From Escherichia phage vB_EcoM_VR26: 64,000 bases of DNA. The position numbers were made by a program, and so were the translations under genes. Where the stretch lies: sequence record NC_028957.1. One strand, 5' to 3'. Below, one piece after another: positions 11,713-57,517 of the stretch. The first letter of the stretch is position 1; every line of letters starts with the position of its first letter. A model generated the notes under the pieces. The model had not been told where the DNA came from and did no database searches. It saw only the letters and a list, made by a program, of their open reading frames with translations.

Positions 11713-12327
11713 TTAATTCAAAACAGTTAAATGCCAAACAGTATACAGGTCATTCAATGGGTGTTTCTCAATCAAATCTACGCGAAGCGTAGTCCCAGCG
11801 GGAAACATAAACTCATCCTCATCATTAACCAGGTGTAAGTTTGACTTCCTGGTTGCTTCTGGATATGCACCATTGAACTCTTCAGGAGGAGCACCGCAAA
11901 TCATTTTAAAGATTGCTTCCTGATAGTTATACGCATAAGGTGCATTGTTTATGCAGAAAATATTCCTTGTACCATAGAAGCTATATGATGCGAAATTTCT
12001 TGCAACCTGCCAGTCCCTGGAAAAACTCATCACACGATTGAACTCAATTGTTGCACCAACATATCTTAAATCTTCCAGGTATTCCATGGTTTTCTTTGAT
12101 ATACCACGGAACAATGCTGCAGGCGGTGCAGTGTTCAGATTGTTGCGGATAATCCTGGTTAAGTCTTCTTGAATCAGGTCGGGTTTATTTTCCATACACT
12201 GCCAGAGTACCGATTGCTCATTATCTGTATAAATGGTATCAATCTCTGCTTGACATTGGTCACGAAAAGACTCGCTAGAAGCGGCAGTATCAATAATTCC
12301 ATTCAAAACGTCATCAGTGTACAGCAT
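11713..12327 (-). CDS. ADP-ribosyltransferase (ModA/ModB family)
   Basis: R-S-E type elements (LFRGIS, SFS, acidic NDEDEF); true ATG at 12325-12327 (MLYTDD); upstream track residues are translated leader. Confidence 0.7.
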   Translation of the reverse strand: MLYTDDVLNGIIDTAASSESFRDQCQAEIDTIYTDNEQSVLWQCMENKPDLIQEDLTRIIRNNLNTAPPAALFRGISKKTMEYLEDLRYVGATIEFNRVMSFSRDWQVARNFASYSFYGTRNIFCINNAPYAYNYQEAIFKMICGAPPEEFNGAYPEATRKSNLHLVNDEDEFMFPAGTTLRVDLIEKHPLNDLYTVWHLTVLN

Positions 12328-12358
12328 TTTATTATCCTCATCAGTAGTTGATAGGAAC

Positions 12359-12387
12359 ATCTTAACATGTCTTATTATTCTTGTACA
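12359..12387 (-). promoter_or_regulatory. early promoter (TGTACA, 17 nt, TAAGAT) with ATCAACTACTGATGAGG leader
   Basis: Inside 3' end of 12375..12932; drives 11713..12327. Confidence 0.45.
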
Positions 12388-12932
12388 CAGTCAAGAACAT
12401 AATAATCACCAACAAATCCAGCATCAACTATCACGAATTTCTGGTCAACTGGAACAAACCATTCAAGCTCAGAATCAATCATGTCCATATATTCTTCACG
12501 CCTTAACGTTGCTGCCTGTGCGGAACCAGATGCAGTATTGAAGAATTCCAGCGGAACGTCAAGCGCGAGCTTACGCATCGCATCATGATAACAAAAAGCC
12601 TCGGTCTGATTTAATCTGACAATAGTCCTTGTCACATATTCCATTGCAGCAAAATCCCTGGCAATACCATAGTCTTCTGTAAAGGAAGTTATTCTTCCAA
12701 ATTCAAAAGGTTGCATTAATTCTTTTGCTTCATCTAACAACTCAATCTCTTGATGGGTAACCCCGCGATACAAGACTGTATCAGGTACAGATAACCTTGA
12801 CTTGATGATTGAGTTGACGTTTGAATGCAAGGTTTTGTCAACCTTTGATGTGCGACATTCAAACAATGAAGCTATCTCCATTTCGCTAAATTTTAACTGG
12901 TTGGGTTCGGTATCAGATTTGATGATGTTCAT
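12375..12932 (-). CDS. ADP-ribosyltransferase (ModA/ModB family)
   Basis: 185 aa; LYRGV, SFTEDYGIARDF and EEYMD motifs; paralogous to 11713..12327. Confidence 0.7.
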   Translation of the reverse strand: MNIIKSDTEPNQLKFSEMEIASLFECRTSKVDKTLHSNVNSIIKSRLSVPDTVLYRGVTHQEIELLDEAKELMQPFEFGRITSFTEDYGIARDFAAMEYVTRTIVRLNQTEAFCYHDAMRKLALDVPLEFFNTASGSAQAATLRREEYMDMIDSELEWFVPVDQKFVIVDAGFVGDYYVLDCVQE

Positions 12933-51171: not shown

Positions 51172-51502
51172 CTTCCAATTTTACCTTCATTAATTTAGCG
51201 TATTCGACTGCAGCAGCCCGGCCATCAATTTGACATGTGATTTCATTTACACATTGACTCTTATTGTTCCATTCAGTTTTAATAAAAGCCCAAAATTGTT
51301 CGGACTGCTCGACGCTGGGTTCTTTGAATTGCGAATAGATTTGCATCGCACTATCTGCGTACTGGGTAAATTTACCATCTGTAGCAGAGGACAGATTTGG
51401 GCCTAAACAGCCCATTAGTAATAGACTTAGAGAAAGTCCTCGAATAAGGTCCATAAAGGACTCCTTATTGTTGGTCATGATTACGCTTTGCAGCCTTAAC
51501 AT
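51158..51502 (-). CDS. putative secreted protein or lipoprotein
   Basis: 114 aa; hydrophobic N-terminal segment LSLLLMGCLG. Confidence 0.4.
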   Translation of the reverse strand: MLRLQSVIMTNNKESFMDLIRGLSLSLLLMGCLGPNLSSATDGKFTQYADSAMQIYSQFKEPSVEQSEQFWAFIKTEWNNKSQCVNEITCQIDGRAAAVEYAKLMKVKLEDEIR

Positions 51503-51528
51503 AGCGGAATACTAGTTAGTATCTGTAT

Positions 51529-51804
51529 TTATAATCTTTTAAACTTGAAACAATATATTGCAAATAAATCAGAAAAATGTCTATCAACCCATATTCTTTG
51601 CACTGGACTAGTAACAGTCAGCATATAATGTGCTTTTTGTAAATTTATTCCATTTTTATTCGGGCATTCTTTATTAACAGAATGGTACGTGCTTGCTACT
51701 ATTTCAATTTCCCTTTCATATCTCTCGCTATCTGTTTGCGTGGGGATAAATGCAATTCCAGCAATAACAAAAATAGAGATATAAGTCCAAATCTTATATA
51801 TCAT
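51529..51804 (-). CDS. small membrane protein
   Basis: 91 aa with N-terminal hydrophobic segment. Confidence 0.4.
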   Translation of the reverse strand: MIYKIWTYISIFVIAGIAFIPTQTDSERYEREIEIVASTYHSVNKECPNKNGINLQKAHYMLTVTSPVQRIWVDRHFSDLFAIYCFKFKRL

Positions 51805-51811
51805 AAGGACC

Positions 51812-52384
51812 TCAGCTTGTCAATTCGAGCCAATGTTTCCTGCATAAAGATACGTACGATTCATTCCCACCGACTAACACTTGCTCGCCGTCCTTTACAG
51901 CAGCACCGTCGATTACTCGAGCGGTCATGGTTGCTTTCCGGCCGCAATGGCAGACGCCCTTTAATTCAACCAGTTTATCCGAAATAGCCAGAAGTCTGGC
52001 TGAACCGGGAAATAATTGACCCCGAAAATCTGTTCTTAACCCGTAACACATAACGGGGATATTGTAATTATCAACCACTCGTGCTAACTGGTCAATTTGC
52101 TCTGGTAACAAAAATTGAGCTTCATCAACCAGGACACAATGGATATCCTTTTGAGACTCGGCCCATTTATAGAATTCAAACAGGTTCATGTCGGCCGTTA
52201 CCAGGTTTGCTTCCTGGCTAATACCAATACGTGATTTAATTTCAGATTCCGAGTCCCGATTATCAATAACAGGTTTTAGCAAAAGCACACTCATTCCACG
52301 CTCTTTATAGGAATAAGCTGCAGTCAGCAATGAAGCTGTTTTGCCTGCATTCATTGCTGCGTAATGATAAATTAAACTCGCCAT
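51812..52384 (-). CDS. tk: thymidine kinase
   Basis: 190 aa; P-loop AAMNAGKT and C-terminal zinc ribbon CHCG...C..H. Confidence 0.9.
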   Translation of the reverse strand: MASLIYHYAAMNAGKTASLLTAAYSYKERGMSVLLLKPVIDNRDSESEIKSRIGISQEANLVTADMNLFEFYKWAESQKDIHCVLVDEAQFLLPEQIDQLARVVDNYNIPVMCYGLRTDFRGQLFPGSARLLAISDKLVELKGVCHCGRKATMTARVIDGAAVKDGEQVLVGGNESYVSLCRKHWLELTS

Positions 52385-52393
52385 ATCACCTTC

Positions 52394-52597
52394 TTAAAGA
52401 GTATTCACATAAGCAATTAATTCGTTTTCTTTCTCATCAAACTGTTCAGCGATTTTTTCGTAATCTTCGGCGCTCACAGGACCCCATTCATCGTATGATT
52501 GCATTCCAGAATTCTCTTCTAGAAGCTCATGGATAAGCTCAAACAATTTATCTTTTTGTTCTTTACTTAGGCTCATAACCATTGCACCTTTAAACAA
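52394..52597 (-). CDS. hypothetical acidic small protein
   Basis: 67-aa ORF. Confidence 0.4.
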   Translation of the reverse strand: MFKGAMVMSLSKEQKDKLFELIHELLEENSGMQSYDEWGPVSAEDYEKIAEQFDEKENELIAYVNTL

Positions 52598-52791
52598 TAT
52601 TCATCTACGTGTTGGACACGTTTGTTTTTGTCAATAAAAGTATATTCAACATACTCGCCGATATACCACTTATCTACATTGTGCGGACTTTTTATAGGAC
52701 ACTTGGTTGCCCGTGTTTCGGACCAGTGTCGAATAATTGTAGCTTTGTTTTTAGGGTCAAATGGGTGTGGATAATGTGCTTTCATAATCAA
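52573..52791 (-). CDS. hypothetical small protein
   Basis: 72-aa ORF. Confidence 0.4.
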   Translation of the reverse strand: MIMKAHYPHPFDPKNKATIIRHWSETRATKCPIKSPHNVDKWYIGEYVEYTFIDKNKRVQHVDEYCLKVQWL

Positions 52792-53236
52792 CTACCACCA
52801 AATCAATATCAGGAGTAAACATATCAATTAACCGGGAAACCTTATCCCAATCACCACCTGCAATACCACATCCAATCCTGGGAATATAAATCACAGGCTT
52901 GAACAAAAGGGATTCTGCTTGTCGATTTAATTCTATCATACAATTTACTAAAGCGCCATAATCCAGATTTGGACCCGGTTCATACTGGGTATAAAGGTTA
53001 TAGCACATACCAAATCCAGTTGGCTTATGTTTAAAAACGATAGACATATCACCGAGTTTTTCTCGGGAACCGTATTCAGTTGATGTTTTATCCATTTCTA
53101 AAATTTTTGGGTAAGCCTTTGCCAGTTGGCCAGCAACGCCTGACCCCATTGTATGGAAACAATTACAGCCATGAGCTATGATGTTTCCTTCAAGAAAGAG
53201 GGCGACAATATCGCCCTTAATATAGTTAACAATCAT
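52757..53236 (-). CDS. macro-domain protein (ADP-ribose binding/processing fold)
   Basis: 159 aa; glycine-rich motifs HGCNCFHTMGSGVAGQL and IGCGIAGGDW typical of macro domains. Confidence 0.55.
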   Translation of the reverse strand: MIVNYIKGDIVALFLEGNIIAHGCNCFHTMGSGVAGQLAKAYPKILEMDKTSTEYGSREKLGDMSIVFKHKPTGFGMCYNLYTQYEPGPNLDYGALVNCMIELNRQAESLLFKPVIYIPRIGCGIAGGDWDKVSRLIDMFTPDIDLVVVDYESTLSTPI

Positions 53237-53592
53237 TTAGAGTTCAATCCTCTGTTATAGGAATCGACTAACCTGTCAACCATACTGGTGCAGGCCGCTT
53301 TATATTTGGCACTCGACAGAATACAATCCATTTCAAATAGTTTCTTTTCATATTTGTTGGATAAAATACTCTTTTTCATAAGAGTGTGTTCAACATCATT
53401 TTGACCGTCTTTATATGCAGCAGTGAGTTTGGCACTGAACTGGATTACACAATCCACATTGCTTGATGCGCAATAATCTTTGGCCGTCCTCGTTGCATAT
53501 TCTATGATGCTATTATTATCATCGCTCTGTACTGAAGCTATTCCTCCCGTGCTGAATACTAACCCTATGGCTAAAGTTATGACTCTTACCAT
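53233..53592 (-). CDS. putative secreted protein
   Basis: 119 aa; N-terminal signal-like segment. Confidence 0.4.
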   Translation of the reverse strand: MVRVITLAIGLVFSTGGIASVQSDDNNSIIEYATRTAKDYCASSNVDCVIQFSAKLTAAYKDGQNDVEHTLMKKSILSNKYEKKLFEMDCILSSAKYKAACTSMVDRLVDSYNRGLNSK

Positions 53593-54135
53593 TTAATCCA
53601 CCGTTTTTAATAGGCCTCGTGATTTTAAGTAGTTAGCTTTTTCTAGGACTTGCGAAGCATACGTATTTCCAGCTTTCACATTCCACCCTGCGTTATATGA
53701 TGATAGTGTTTTTCTTATGTCCCCCTTGTGGATGTTCAACCAGTATGAAAGCTCAATATAAGCCCAGCGTGCACTGTTCTCTCTCTTGCTTATCATCTTG
53801 ATTATTTCTTTATCTGTCATTGTCCACCCAACCTGTTTTACGCGCTCGCGCACGGTTGGAAGATAATTTTGGAATATACCATATGCATGATGCTTATCTT
53901 TATTTAATCCTGTATTAACGCCAGCAGATGATTCCTGCCAGGTTAAACCAGCCATGATATATCCCAAACCATTATGTTGGTGCGGATTTTCTTTGTACTT
54001 ACCATTTTTCTGGAACTGTTCTCCAAACGCATAAGCATATTGGAGGTTCTCCATTTGTTCATTACTGAAAGTAGGCTCTACGCTATGGGCAGACATACTA
54101 ACTGTCAATAGTAAAGTGGCTATTACTTTTTTCAT
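53593..54135 (-). CDS. periplasmic lytic transglycosylase-like protein
   Basis: 180 aa; signal peptide; ES...GIFQ...YNAG motif order typical of Slt-type domains. Confidence 0.55.
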   Translation of the reverse strand: MKKVIATLLLTVSMSAHSVEPTFSNEQMENLQYAYAFGEQFQKNGKYKENPHQHNGLGYIMAGLTWQESSAGVNTGLNKDKHHAYGIFQNYLPTVRERVKQVGWTMTDKEIIKMISKRENSARWAYIELSYWLNIHKGDIRKTLSSYNAGWNVKAGNTYASQVLEKANYLKSRGLLKTVD

Positions 54136-54145
54136 GAATTCCCCA

Positions 54146-54604
54146 TTAGATATAAATCACTTTTGTGCTAATTTTTCCTTCCAGACGATTAGAGTTAACA
54201 AACGCCATACGACAACACATGGTTGGAGACTTCCCAGGAAGAGCTGGGTTAACTGTCATTCCTAACCATAAGTTCTTGTCTGTGATTTCCAGACGAAGTG
54301 GACGGTAGTTCACATTCGGGTCAATTTGTGCTTCAACTTCCGGGAGTGGTTTCATCTCCAGGAATTCAACAATTTCTTTTACATGTGGTGTGATTTTTCC
54401 AAACAAGTCAAAAACATATTGTTCGTCAATTTCACGTTGGATTGCACGGTCCAACAGGTGTGGACTGTACTTAATGAAGAATGCTTCAAGGCCTGCTTCT
54501 TTACAAGCCTTGTTGATAGCATTATTAATTTTGAGGAACTCCGTTTCAAAAATACGACGAAGTTTATTGCGGCGAATGTAAACACTTGAATCGATAGTAG
54601 TCAT
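54146..54604 (-). CDS. regB: endoribonuclease RegB
   Basis: True ATG at 54602-54604 (MTTIDSSVYIRRNKLRR) with AAGGAGA SD; collinear with recalled T4 RegB. Confidence 0.85.
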   Translation of the reverse strand: MTTIDSSVYIRRNKLRRIFETEFLKINNAINKACKEAGLEAFFIKYSPHLLDRAIQREIDEQYVFDLFGKITPHVKEIVEFLEMKPLPEVEAQIDPNVNYRPLRLEITDKNLWLGMTVNPALPGKSPTMCCRMAFVNSNRLEGKISTKVIYI

Positions 54605-54631
54605 GATTATCTCCTTTTGTTTGATGGGATA

Positions 54632-54660
54632 ATCATAACTCATTTCAACCTGCTTGTACA
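54632..54660 (-). promoter_or_regulatory. early promoter upstream of regB
   Basis: TGTACA 54655-54660, 17-nt spacer, TATGAT -10; leader with AAGGAGA SD. Confidence 0.45.
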
Positions 54661-55008
54661 CTATTCTTTAAAACGAATTAGCTTATTTAATGACTGTGAG
54701 ACTTCAGCACGAACAGCGTGTAAATTCTTAAGCTGTTCAAGGCGTTGCTCGTAGTAAGCAATTTCATCTTCTTCAAGACAGTCGTTTGAATCTTCTTTAA
54801 GATAGTTCCCGTAGTCCTGAAAGGCCTTACGAATAACTTCCTGGAAATCGTCTAGACTTTGAATTTTTGGCTGTTTCGGTGTGAATCCAAACGGATTGGA
54901 ATCATTTATGCGGCGATGAGAAGCGGTTGATAACTCATAACCAAAACCAGAATTAATCTGCGCCATTAGTATTTTTCCTCGGATCGAAATACTGCACGAC
55001 ATGCCCAC
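54661..55008 (-). CDS. hypothetical protein
   Basis: 115-aa ORF. Confidence 0.4.
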
Positions 55009-55286
55009 ATGCTGGCTTCTTTTAGATGTTGCTTAGCATACTTAAGAGCCTGCACTGCATCCATATCTTCTTTGGTTTGTTGCTCTGTTTCATTTTCTTT
55101 CAAGATATATGCTTCTTCAATCAGAGCATCAAACATCAATCCAAGACGGACTTCTGCATCTTTAATAGCGTTCACTTTACCGATTTTATCGTCGGTGTGC
55201 GGCTTGTAACCTTTGATATCTTCAATCATTTCACTTCCTCGCCAGTTGCGATATCGTATTCTACCAAACGAAGGCCATCGGTCCAA
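54966..55286 (-). CDS. hypothetical protein
   Basis: 106-aa ORF; start uncertain. Confidence 0.35.
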
Positions 55287-55459
55287 CCCTGAACGGAGAT
55301 ATAAGTGCTAGGATAAACCAGTTCTTTACCGTTCCACTGACCACCGTCCCAAACTTCCAGAAAGTCTTGTTCACCCGGACCATTAAACCATTCAACGAAT
55401 CTTTTCAAGGCTGCATCAGAGCCTTCAATCGTCAGTTTAGACATATTTTTTCCAGTCAC
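55226..55459 (-). CDS. hypothetical small protein
   Basis: 77-aa ORF. Confidence 0.35.
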   Translation of the reverse strand: MTGKNMSKLTIEGSDAALKRFVEWFNGPGEQDFLEVWDGGQWNGKELVYPSTYISVQGWTDGLRLVEYDIATGEEVK

Positions 55460-55733
55460 TAATTAATCGCACATCCTGGTCATACGTCAGGAGGCTACGA
55501 GTTATAATACCCTTACATGGTCCAGAAATAAATTCCAGAGTAAAGTAAGGAACCAACTTCATCAAGCGAATACTCGGAGCAGTGCAACGAAATCTGGACC
55601 CAATAAAAGGTCCAGACAAAAACACGTACTCAAAGAAATTTGCTTTATTAAAGATTTCAAAATTCTTTACGAAATCTTCAGACCTAACCTTTGGAATAAA
55701 ATAGATTTGGTCAAAAAGCTCTTCATGAGTCAT
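55437..55733 (-). CDS. hypothetical protein
   Basis: 98-aa ORF. Confidence 0.4.
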   Translation of the reverse strand: MTHEELFDQIYFIPKVRSEDFVKNFEIFNKANFFEYVFLSGPFIGSRFRCTAPSIRLMKLVPYFTLEFISGPCKGIITRSLLTYDQDVRLISDWKKYV

Positions 55734-56260
55734 TATTGCATTCCTATCACAAAGAATAGCGGTAAAGGCTTAGCGCCTTGACACATAAATTTATTCATCA
55801 TTACCTGATAAGCTTCATAGAACTTATCCATCGCTGGAAGTCGCATGGGCTCTTCGATAATAATCAATAATCGAGTAACAGATAATCCACGATACTTATG
55901 GAAGTTATCTTCGTCTAAAAATGAACGAACGGTATCATAGGCGATAAATCCAGGGCGTTCTACTTGAAGATGTGGTTGTGCCTTAGAAACCTGTTTTATT
56001 ACATTACAGATTTCTCGTGAGCGATGTGAAGAACTCGACATAACAATCACATCATTACCCTTAGAAACCCAATCTGCTGCAAACTGCGCAAGGGCACTTG
56101 TTTTACCTGTTTGACGACCACCGTCAAGTCGAAGAGTACCAAACTCTTGCATTCTTGAAGCAGGTTCATACCAGGTGTATTGGTCTGAATCTAAGCGTTC
56201 AATGGCGCGTTCAGCGAAGGCGTGCATTAAGGTTAGATAAATTGGAGTTAAAAATTTCAT
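55733..56260 (-). CDS. P-loop NTPase-like protein
   Basis: 175 aa; Walker A-like GGRQTGKTSAL; hydrophobic IIIEEP resembling Walker B. Confidence 0.45.
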   Translation of the reverse strand: MKFLTPIYLTLMHAFAERAIERLDSDQYTWYEPASRMQEFGTLRLDGGRQTGKTSALAQFAADWVSKGNDVIVMSSSSHRSREICNVIKQVSKAQPHLQVERPGFIAYDTVRSFLDEDNFHKYRGLSVTRLLIIIEEPMRLPAMDKFYEAYQVMMNKFMCQGAKPLPLFFVIGMQ

Positions 56261-56421
56261 AGTTGTCTCTTAGTTGTAGGGCCATTCCTTGGCACATTAA
56301 TTCGTCCATGTATCCGAATGTAAACCCCTTACCGCACTCGGGCTCGACCTTATTACAGGTAGGGAAAGGTCCATCACTCAGAGGACACGACGTTCATGAG
56401 GAGAGGGTCGGTTTGCCTTTA

Positions 56422-56724
56422 TTAAAAAGAACCAGAGCCTTTAATTGTGTTCTGGCGACCTTTATTTTCTACTTCAGAATGGTCGATTTCGTATGCTTGT
56501 GCTACGCCAAAGGCCTTTTTAACTTTAGCTAAAGAACCTTTAGATGTAACAATATTAAAAGTATTGCCTTTGGTAAAATCAACCAAATCCACTTGCACCC
56601 CTTGTTTACCGAGGCTTGCTACAATAGCATCAACATATTGTTGGTCTAAATTGCCTTGAACCCCAATTTGAAATGCTTTAGGAACTTTAGCAGATTCAGT
56701 AATAAATTCTTGATATGTTTTCAT
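56422..56724 (-). CDS. capsid internal protein (IP family)
   Basis: 100 aa; N-terminal capsid-targeting sequence MKTYQEFITES. Confidence 0.7.
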   Translation of the reverse strand: MKTYQEFITESAKVPKAFQIGVQGNLDQQYVDAIVASLGKQGVQVDLVDFTKGNTFNIVTSKGSLAKVKKAFGVAQAYEIDHSEVENKGRQNTIKGSGSF

Positions 56725-56737
56725 ATTGTTTCTTTAA

Positions 56738-57052
56738 TTAAGCTTTAGGGAAATCGCGCAAAAACGCATCATAAAGTTTATTACCAATGCGACGGAATGC
56801 TTTTGCCGCATGAACGTTATCTGGGTTTGCAATTTTAATCTGCATTACATGACTACCAGCCCATGATTTAGCTTCGTCATAATAACCTTTAATTTCTTTA
56901 ATAGTCTTGCGTTTTCCACCAGGACCATCGACAGTAATTTTCCACGAACCAGTGCTTGTTTCACTTGGTGGGGTTAACTGTTCAATCCAGACATAACCAC
57001 CTTCAACACGTTGTTGAGTAGATTCAGTAATAAATTCTTGATAAGTTTTCAT
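56738..57052 (-). CDS. capsid internal protein (IP family)
   Basis: Starts at internal ATG 57050-57052 giving MKTYQEFITES; track N-terminal 13 residues are leader. Confidence 0.7.
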   Translation of the reverse strand: MKTYQEFITESTQQRVEGGYVWIEQLTPPSETSTGSWKITVDGPGGKRKTIKEIKGYYDEAKSWAGSHVMQIKIANPDNVHAAKAFRRIGNKLYDAFLRDFPKA

Positions 57053-57100
57053 TTTATATTCCATTGTTTGGTTGATAAAATCATTATACAACCTTTTTAG

Positions 57101-57517
57101 TTAAGCGTACACAGCTTTCCCATAGTATTTGTACCAGGTAGGCTTTTGAGAAATTTTCTCATTCAGTCTGGATTGACTGATTTCAATTGACCAGATTGAT
57201 GGTTGATAATCATTCTTCCATTCATCAGGAATATCATTTAAATCTTGGGTAGAAATATCTTTTATATTAAACCCTCGCTTTAAACATTCAGCAATAAGTT
57301 CTTGATGACGGTTTTTAAGGAACAAAAGCTTATCATAAAAGAAGGTGACATGACCAGTTCCTAAAAGAAAAGATGATGGGATTTTAAAGTCAGACACCTT
57401 TTTACCATTTTGCACATGCTTACGAACAGCACCAAACACGCGAGGAAGCTCACGATATTCAGCCATAAGGTGTTGGTCGGCAAGTTCAGATACCAGGGTT
57501 AAATTAATGCGAGTCAT
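57101..57517 (-). CDS. denV: endonuclease V (pyrimidine-dimer DNA glycosylase)
   Basis: 138 aa, near-identical to recalled T4 DenV. Confidence 0.92.

Follow-up and report, generated by a model that had tools for sequence, protein, structure and literature searches.

What does a bacteriophage gain from a small, stand-alone macro domain, and from which substrate would such a protein take ADP-ribose? The question is posed by one gene of Escherichia phage vB_EcoM_VR26 (NC_028957.1), lying in a 64,000-nucleotide stretch of DNA that was analysed as a whole and is called the window hereafter. A sequence-only reading of this DNA had described the 159-residue product as a macro-domain protein that could either reverse an ADP-ribosylation-based host defence or tune the modifications made by the phage itself. 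Judged by its sequence, the open reading frame is orthologous to tk.4 (also named adfM) of phage T4 and encodes a small macro-domain enzyme, stand-alone and of the ALC1-like/TARG1-like kind. The gene is already known: many phage records list it as tk.4, as "phosphatase" or as "macro domain protein", and the T4 ortholog has both a name and a genetic phenotype, so the gene alone brings nothing new. Its value lies in mechanism: the T4-type AdfM is without the catalytic lysine of DarG, has the glutamine of Streptomyces SCO6735 instead, and is still needed against DarTG2.

A macro domain in the regB-to-tk cluster

The macro-domain call is confirmed, far above chance. The protein matches the Pfam Macro profile (PF01661) at 35 bits (E 1.5e-8), where the gathering score is 22, over 116 of the 118 profile positions, and PHROG 335 at E 1.3e-70. 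An AlphaFold2 model built on the 51-sequence family alignment (mean pLDDT 94.1, pTM 0.89) has the three-layer alpha/beta macro fold, and its best Foldseek match is human TARG1/OARD1 (PDB 4J5S; E 1.4e-10, TM 0.72-0.82), so the structural comparison on which the assignment was to stand or fall finds the fold present. Both glycine-rich motifs that had been quoted are there as well (Table 1), with N25, G31-x-G33 and G122-x-G124...G127-G128 invariant or nearly so; these loops are predicted to bind ADP-ribose. The closest functional lead is T4 Tk.4, with 59% identity over 155 residues without gaps (E 2e-71). In a ranking by the family profile, BT1257 (3.4e-20), TARG1 (2.6e-17) and SCO6735 (1.6e-15) are placed above M. 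tuberculosis DarG (5.6e-12), and also above Poa1p.

Relatives of tk.4 are found by tblastn in 2,780 of 50,697 phage records, and according to a published survey 41% of myoviruses have macro domains (PMC9503650). Bacteria carry them too. At least 504 Tk.4-type matches lie in bacterial genome contigs, and in the 80 loci examined (L083-L162) they are stand-alone genes of about 150 residues with 33-43% identity, all with the glutamine discussed below; the hosts include Ruegeria, Desulfobacter, Verrucomicrobia and Hyphomicrobiaceae.

The locus itself is 99.7% identical to Escherichia phage vB_EcoM_VR7 (Gaprivervirus, Tevenvirinae) across positions 52000..54200. A 25-kb stretch of the window reaches at best 95% identity to any phage record (TH15), and the coordinate offset from VR7 moves from +2 at modA to -306 at tk.4, a shift of about 308 bp over the interval from 12 kb to 52 kb. 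These two observations argue that the window is a mosaic Gaprivervirus relative of VR7, with insertions or deletions relative to VR7 between 12 and 52 kb.

Table 1. Coordinates in the window of tk.4, its neighbours and other features considered here
Feature	Position	Strand	Remarks
tk.4 (adfM ortholog) CDS	52757..53236	-	ATG-started ORF, 159 aa, single macro domain
First ADP-ribose-binding loop (predicted), residues 23-38	53123..53170	-	GCNCFHTMGSGVAGQL; N25, G31-x-G33; H22 just ahead
NLYTQ, residues 80-84	52985..52999	-	Q84 at the catalytic-residue position in the MAFFT alignment
Second, phosphate-binding loop (predicted), residues 121-130	52847..52876	-	IGCGIAGGDW; from the alignment
vs stop/tk.4 start overlap	53233..53236	-	ATGA, read from the sequence
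tk.3	52573..52785	-	Directly downstream of tk.4; Pfam DUF7202, E 1.9e-36
tk.2	52394..52576	-	Downstream of tk.4; Pfam DUF7438, E 2.1e-16
vs.1	53593..54135	-	Two genes upstream of tk.4, beyond vs
Hairpin in tk.4	53199..53217	-	20 nt past the tk.4 start; AGGGCGAT-ATT-GTCGCCCT, then CTTTCTT
modA, modB ORFs	11713..12360 and 12375..12932		PHROG 832 "RNA polymerase ADP-ribosylase"; modA/modB in the VR7 annotation

The gene sits in a compact and conserved cluster. The overlap between the vs stop and the tk.4 start suggests translational coupling within one transcription unit. GAGGA is located 11 nt upstream of the tk.4 start codon, and the 3' end of the gene shares 29 nt with tk.3. In VR7 the order is regB-vs.1-vs-tk.4-tk.3-tk.2-tk, with tk.4 annotated as VR7_gp117, "phosphatase"; the gene order of phage T4 is identical, and there tk.4 carries the annotation "contains A1pp phosphatase motif". 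When the neighbours were searched by tblastn around the 79 IMG/VR loci with homologs, the regB/vs.1/vs...tk neighbourhood proved to be kept in about 27 T-even-like contigs. The junction of vs and tk.4 is arranged alike in T4 and in about 20 related IMG/VR loci, and in those loci the match to vs stops where tk.4 starts. Scans of positions 51500..57500 returned 17 promoter-like sites where 17.9 were expected, and 6 terminator-like sites where 4.2 were expected; on the basis of such consensus scans, no claim is made on expression timing.

Several features of the neighbourhood vary or stand apart. The tblastn survey of IMG/VR neighbourhoods finds tk.3 missing at many orthologous loci. The vs.1 product has no Pfam match at E 0.01 or better, is labelled an SLT or lytic transglycosylase domain protein in some phage records (H15, H19), and begins with a signal-like hydrophobic segment. 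In two T-even-like IMG/VR contigs (L029:3219-3446 and L045:3001-3249) the tk.4 homolog matches the query only partially while the flanking regB, vs.1, vs and tk are intact. These homologs may be frameshifted or truncated alleles, and if so, sensitivity to DarTG2 would be predicted.

A strong hairpin near the 5' end of tk.4 was also observed, in the stretch coding for K-G-D-I-V-A-L. It is kept at the nucleotide level in T4 and in 11 of 11 other distinct orthologs with KGD[IL]VAL (59-100% protein identity), with folding energies (dG) of -11.8 to -13.7 and variable loop bases. At two loci (L017, L018) a synonymous change from AAG..CTN to AAA..TTR replaces a G-C pair of the hairpin with A-U, and orthologs with KGDIVKL are without it. 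The hairpin is partly a by-product of coding, because GGC-GAC, coding for Gly-Asp, and GTC-GCC, coding for Val-Ala, are reverse complements of each other. If the hairpin has a function, it might act as an attenuator, stabilise the mRNA or control coupled translation.

A glutamine at the catalytic position

For comparison of the active sites, the sequences of PDB entries were recovered from HMMER alignments and placed in one MAFFT alignment, and the residue numbering of SCO6735 was checked against published mutants (PMC9411070). Thirteen positions of the window protein are invariant in the 51-sequence alignment, namely H22, G23, N25, C26, G33, A35, N80, Y82, Q84, P119, G122, G124 and W130. The column of Q84 is the one that holds K84 of TARG1 (LITK), the lysine of DarG and of the PhiKZ AdfM (FPTK), Q85 of SCO6735 and the glutamine of BT1257 (NMIGQ). 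The column of N25 corresponds to N27 of SCO6735 and the conserved asparagine of DarG. The window protein thus combines a glutamine at the catalytic position with the conserved asparagine, as do SCO6735 and BT1257, the relative geometry of N25 and Q84 being that given by the alignment alone. The glutamine is found in all 75 IMG/VR homologs compared, down to 34% identity, and in all 80 bacterial homologs at 33-43% identity; the pattern by which these loci were fetched fixes columns 22-26 and 122-130 and leaves columns 80-84 unconstrained.

The second loop points the same way. In the window protein it has the form PRIGCG[LI]AGGxW, with G122 and G124 aligned to G126 and G128 of SCO6735. As a whole, PRIGCGIAGGDW resembles the corresponding loops of BT1257 (PRIGCGLAGGKW) and SCO6735 (PRIGCGLAGGTW), and is unlike those of TARG1 (PRIGCGLDRLQW) and DarG (PPLGVGNGGLDW).

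What such a glutamine can do is known from SCO6735, which shields S. coelicolor from DarT and takes thymidine-linked ADP-ribose off DNA, by a mechanism proposed to be water-mediated; its Q85A and Q85E variants are inactive, and N27S is nearly so (PMC9411070). A glutamine in the place of the DarG lysine makes SCO6735-type chemistry, water-mediated and positioned by the glutamine, appear more likely for the window protein than the lysine mechanism of DarG and TARG1.

DarTG2 and the choice of substrate

The strongest indication of function comes from T4. In a preprint of November 2025 describing HIDEN-SEQ, a T4 transposon library was grown on a host expressing DarTG2, and tk.4 was the single significant hit; a clean knockout made T4 sensitive to DarTG2, and the gene was renamed adfM, for anti-DarT factor Macrodomain (10.1101/2025.11.20.689424). 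The removal of ADP-ribose from DNA by AdfM is the authors' own inference, worded as "seems likely" (10.1101/2025.11.20.689424). The result is consistent with the earlier finding that T4 lacking both adfA and adfN (gene 30.3, encoding a NADAR eraser of guanine-linked ADP-ribose) remains resistant to DarTG2 (PMC11825919). On the function of T4 Tk.4 the literature search found this preprint alone, beside a separate paper on the AdfM of phage PhiKZ, and the genetic support accordingly comprises one preprint and one DarTG2 allele. In PhiKZ, gp104 (AdfM) takes DarT2-installed ADP-ribose off a TNTC oligonucleotide in vitro (Cell Rep 2026, PMC13309987). The N23A substitution lowers this activity, and the protein rescues DarT2 toxicity (PMC13309987).

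Against this background, it is quite likely that the tk.4 product is an ALC1-like/TARG1-like macro-domain enzyme that counters DarTG2 by hydrolysing thymine-linked ADP-ribose through a Gln-type mechanism. Host DarTG2 would sense the infection, and its DarT2 toxin would ADP-ribosylate thymidines in single-stranded phage DNA and so block phage replication. The Tk.4-type protein would then take the ADP-ribose adduct into its macro-domain cleft and hydrolyse the bond between thymine and ribose, giving back unmodified DNA, with the invariant Q84, buttressed by N25, presumably acting where DarG has its lysine. The present analysis supplies the macro fold, the fact that the gene is orthologous to T4 tk.4 and syntenic with it, and the active-site pattern; the need for T4 tk.4 against DarTG2, and the removal of thymidine-linked ADP-ribose by SCO6735 and PhiKZ AdfM, come from the literature. 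Hydrolysis of ADP-ribosylated DNA by the window protein or by T4 Tk.4 itself, and the essentiality of Q84, are what we infer from the two together. Of the first suggestion in the sequence-only reading, that the protein reverses a host defence, the part concerning defence is thus backed by transposon and knockout genetics of the T4 ortholog, with enzymatic reversal as the probable mechanism. Some observations count against the mechanism: identity to T4 Tk.4 is only 59% and the second loop differs, and two residues with which SCO6735 contacts DNA, K34 and K89, are not conserved.

Protection need not be hydrolytic either, as SCO6735 Q85A inhibits DarT without catalysis. Indeed, inhibition of DarT in vitro was seen with three dead variants, SCO6735 Q85A, DarG K80A and TARG1 K84A, and was strongest with SCO6735 (PMC9411070), and the window protein is without the catalytic lysine of DarG. 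Tk.4 might accordingly act mainly as an inhibitor that binds DarT2, or as a shield on single-stranded DNA, whether ADP-ribosylated or still a target, which we nevertheless consider improbable: H22, N25, Q84, G122 and G124 do not vary among homologs from phages and bacteria with identities as low as 33%, which indicates selection on catalysis, and the protein has no DarT-binding C-terminal domain. Nor need the nucleic acid be DNA. TARG1, DarG and SCO6735 each clear ADP-ribose from uracil in single-stranded RNA, SCO6735 and TARG1 more efficiently than DarG, and uracil-linked ADP-ribosylated RNA could in principle be the main substrate, with an RNA-targeting ADP-ribosyltransferase as the adversary. 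The literature searched yielded no bacterial anti-phage system that modifies RNA uracil, however; CmdT acts on adenine, in a modification described as irreversible, and the only reported tk.4 phenotype is with DarTG2 (10.1101/2025.11.20.689424). We hold an RNA-centred role to be very unlikely.

Two further readings look beyond nucleic acids. The "phosphatase" (A1pp) label and a similarity to Poa1p would fit an enzyme that processes small soluble derivatives such as ADP-ribose-1''-phosphate, O-acetyl-ADP-ribose or an immune signalling nucleotide. The label was rejected as a statement of function, being a transferred domain name with no assay behind it, and the similarity to Poa1p, though real, is no better than that to BT1257, TARG1 or SCO6735, all of which outrank it in the profile search. 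Together with a T4 knockout phenotype that is specific to DarTG2, a modifier of DNA (10.1101/2025.11.20.689424), this leaves small molecules with a low probability as the main substrate; their processing could be a side activity alongside the de-ADP-ribosylation of DNA. The other suggestion in the sequence-only reading, that the protein tunes or reverses the marks of Alt, ModA and ModB on proteins, has a natural appeal in that both Mod-type ADP-ribosyltransferases are encoded in the same genome, as the PHROG 832 matches and the VR7 annotation bear out. Members of the macro superfamily can remove ADP-ribose from proteins, and one of them, Legionella MavL, is specific for arginine. It is arginine that Alt, ModA and ModB modify, whereas the nearest characterized relatives (TARG1, DarG, SCO6735) act on Glu/Asp esters or on thymine and uracil. 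Moreover, tk.4 and modA/modB lie about 40 kb apart in different clusters and are not co-organised. In the available portion of the T4 transposon data, the sole tk.4 phenotype reported is depletion with DarTG2 (10.1101/2025.11.20.689424). The suggestion thus finds no support, and of all the readings it is the one to which we assign the least probability. Hydrolysis of thymine-linked ADP-ribose in DNA remains the preferred reading.

Tk.4 among known macro-domain erasers

T4 Tk.4 (NP_049723) is the nearest counterpart. Both proteins consist of a single domain (155 residues in T4), share the NLYTQ motif with glutamine at the catalytic position, and are encoded at the same place, between vs and tk.3. 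The second loop reads GAGIGKGNW in T4 and GCGIAGGDW in the window protein, and anti-DarTG2 activity was tested for T4 only, by genetics only (Tn-seq and knockout).

DarG from M. tuberculosis (5M3I), T. aquaticus (5M31) and T. africanus (7OMU) has its catalytic lysine after FPT (K80 in T. aquaticus), where the window protein has Q84, and the full-length proteins of about 330-400 residues carry a C-terminal DarT-binding domain that the 159-residue protein lacks. The PADLOC DarG profile is matched over positions 3-144 of 329 only, and the NCBIfam DarG model (NF048014) over positions 2-147 of 338, at 30.7 bits against an equivalog cut-off of 250. While DarG adjoins the darT toxin gene, tk.4 adjoins vs and tk.3, and tblastn with a single P. 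aeruginosa DarT2 query (from the methods of PMC13309987), which limits sensitivity, found no DarT2 homolog, with E values up to 0.01 accepted, either in the window or within 3-4 kb of 159 homolog loci. An identity as DarG was rejected, since the protein has neither the lysine nor the second domain, its gene lacks a toxin neighbour and its score is far under the cut-off; a DarTG-like operon was rejected likewise, within the sensitivity of that one query. By its sequence, the protein probably functions like the macro domain of DarG, as an eraser of thymidine-linked ADP-ribose, and yet is not a DarG.

SCO6735 (Streptomyces coelicolor, PDB 5E3B) and BT1257 (Bacteroides, PDB 2AFC/2FG1) are only 25-26% identical to the window protein. 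The mobile loop after the glutamine is 6-7 residues shorter than in SCO6735 and without an equivalent of its K89, and the DNA-contacting K34 is replaced by S32; with neither lysine conserved and the loop shortened, the window protein is not a strict member of the SCO6735 family. The genes also differ in setting, one being a DNA-damage-inducible bacterial gene and the other a phage gene. TARG1 removes both thymine- and uracil-linked ADP-ribose and relies on a K84/D125 dyad, the equivalents of which in the window protein are Q84 and A126. The Gln-type mechanism has so far been described for one Streptomyces enzyme, and the question raised by tk.4 is whether it operates across a large family of phage and bacterial proteins. 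On the preferred reading, T-even-like phages carry base-specific erasers for both DarT types, with AdfN (NADAR) for guanine and AdfM (macro domain) for thymine, a set that is relevant for predicting phage host range against E. coli bearing DarTG.

PhiKZ gp104 is likewise a stand-alone macro domain that a phage encodes and uses against DarTG2 (PMC13309987). It belongs to another clade, however. PhiKZ AdfM is DarG-like, with E 9e-25 to M. tuberculosis DarG, keeps the lysine of FPTK and reaches 133 bits with the DarG model, compared to about 30 bits for the window protein, whose match covers the macro half; BLASTP aligns only 31 residues of the two phage proteins, at E 0.001. The odds are about even, in our estimate, that Tk.4/AdfM forms a distinct and widespread family of stand-alone, Gln-type hydrolases of base-linked ADP-ribose with an SCO6735-like mechanism, spread over many myoviruses and diverse bacteria and never beside darT in the loci examined, and that it perhaps erases ADP-ribose broadly, from thymine and uracil in DNA and RNA alike, and thereby counters more than a single ADP-ribosylating defence. 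If this is true, T4 Tk.4 and PhiKZ gp104 represent independent recruitments of different macro-domain clades, and the name AdfM would span them both.
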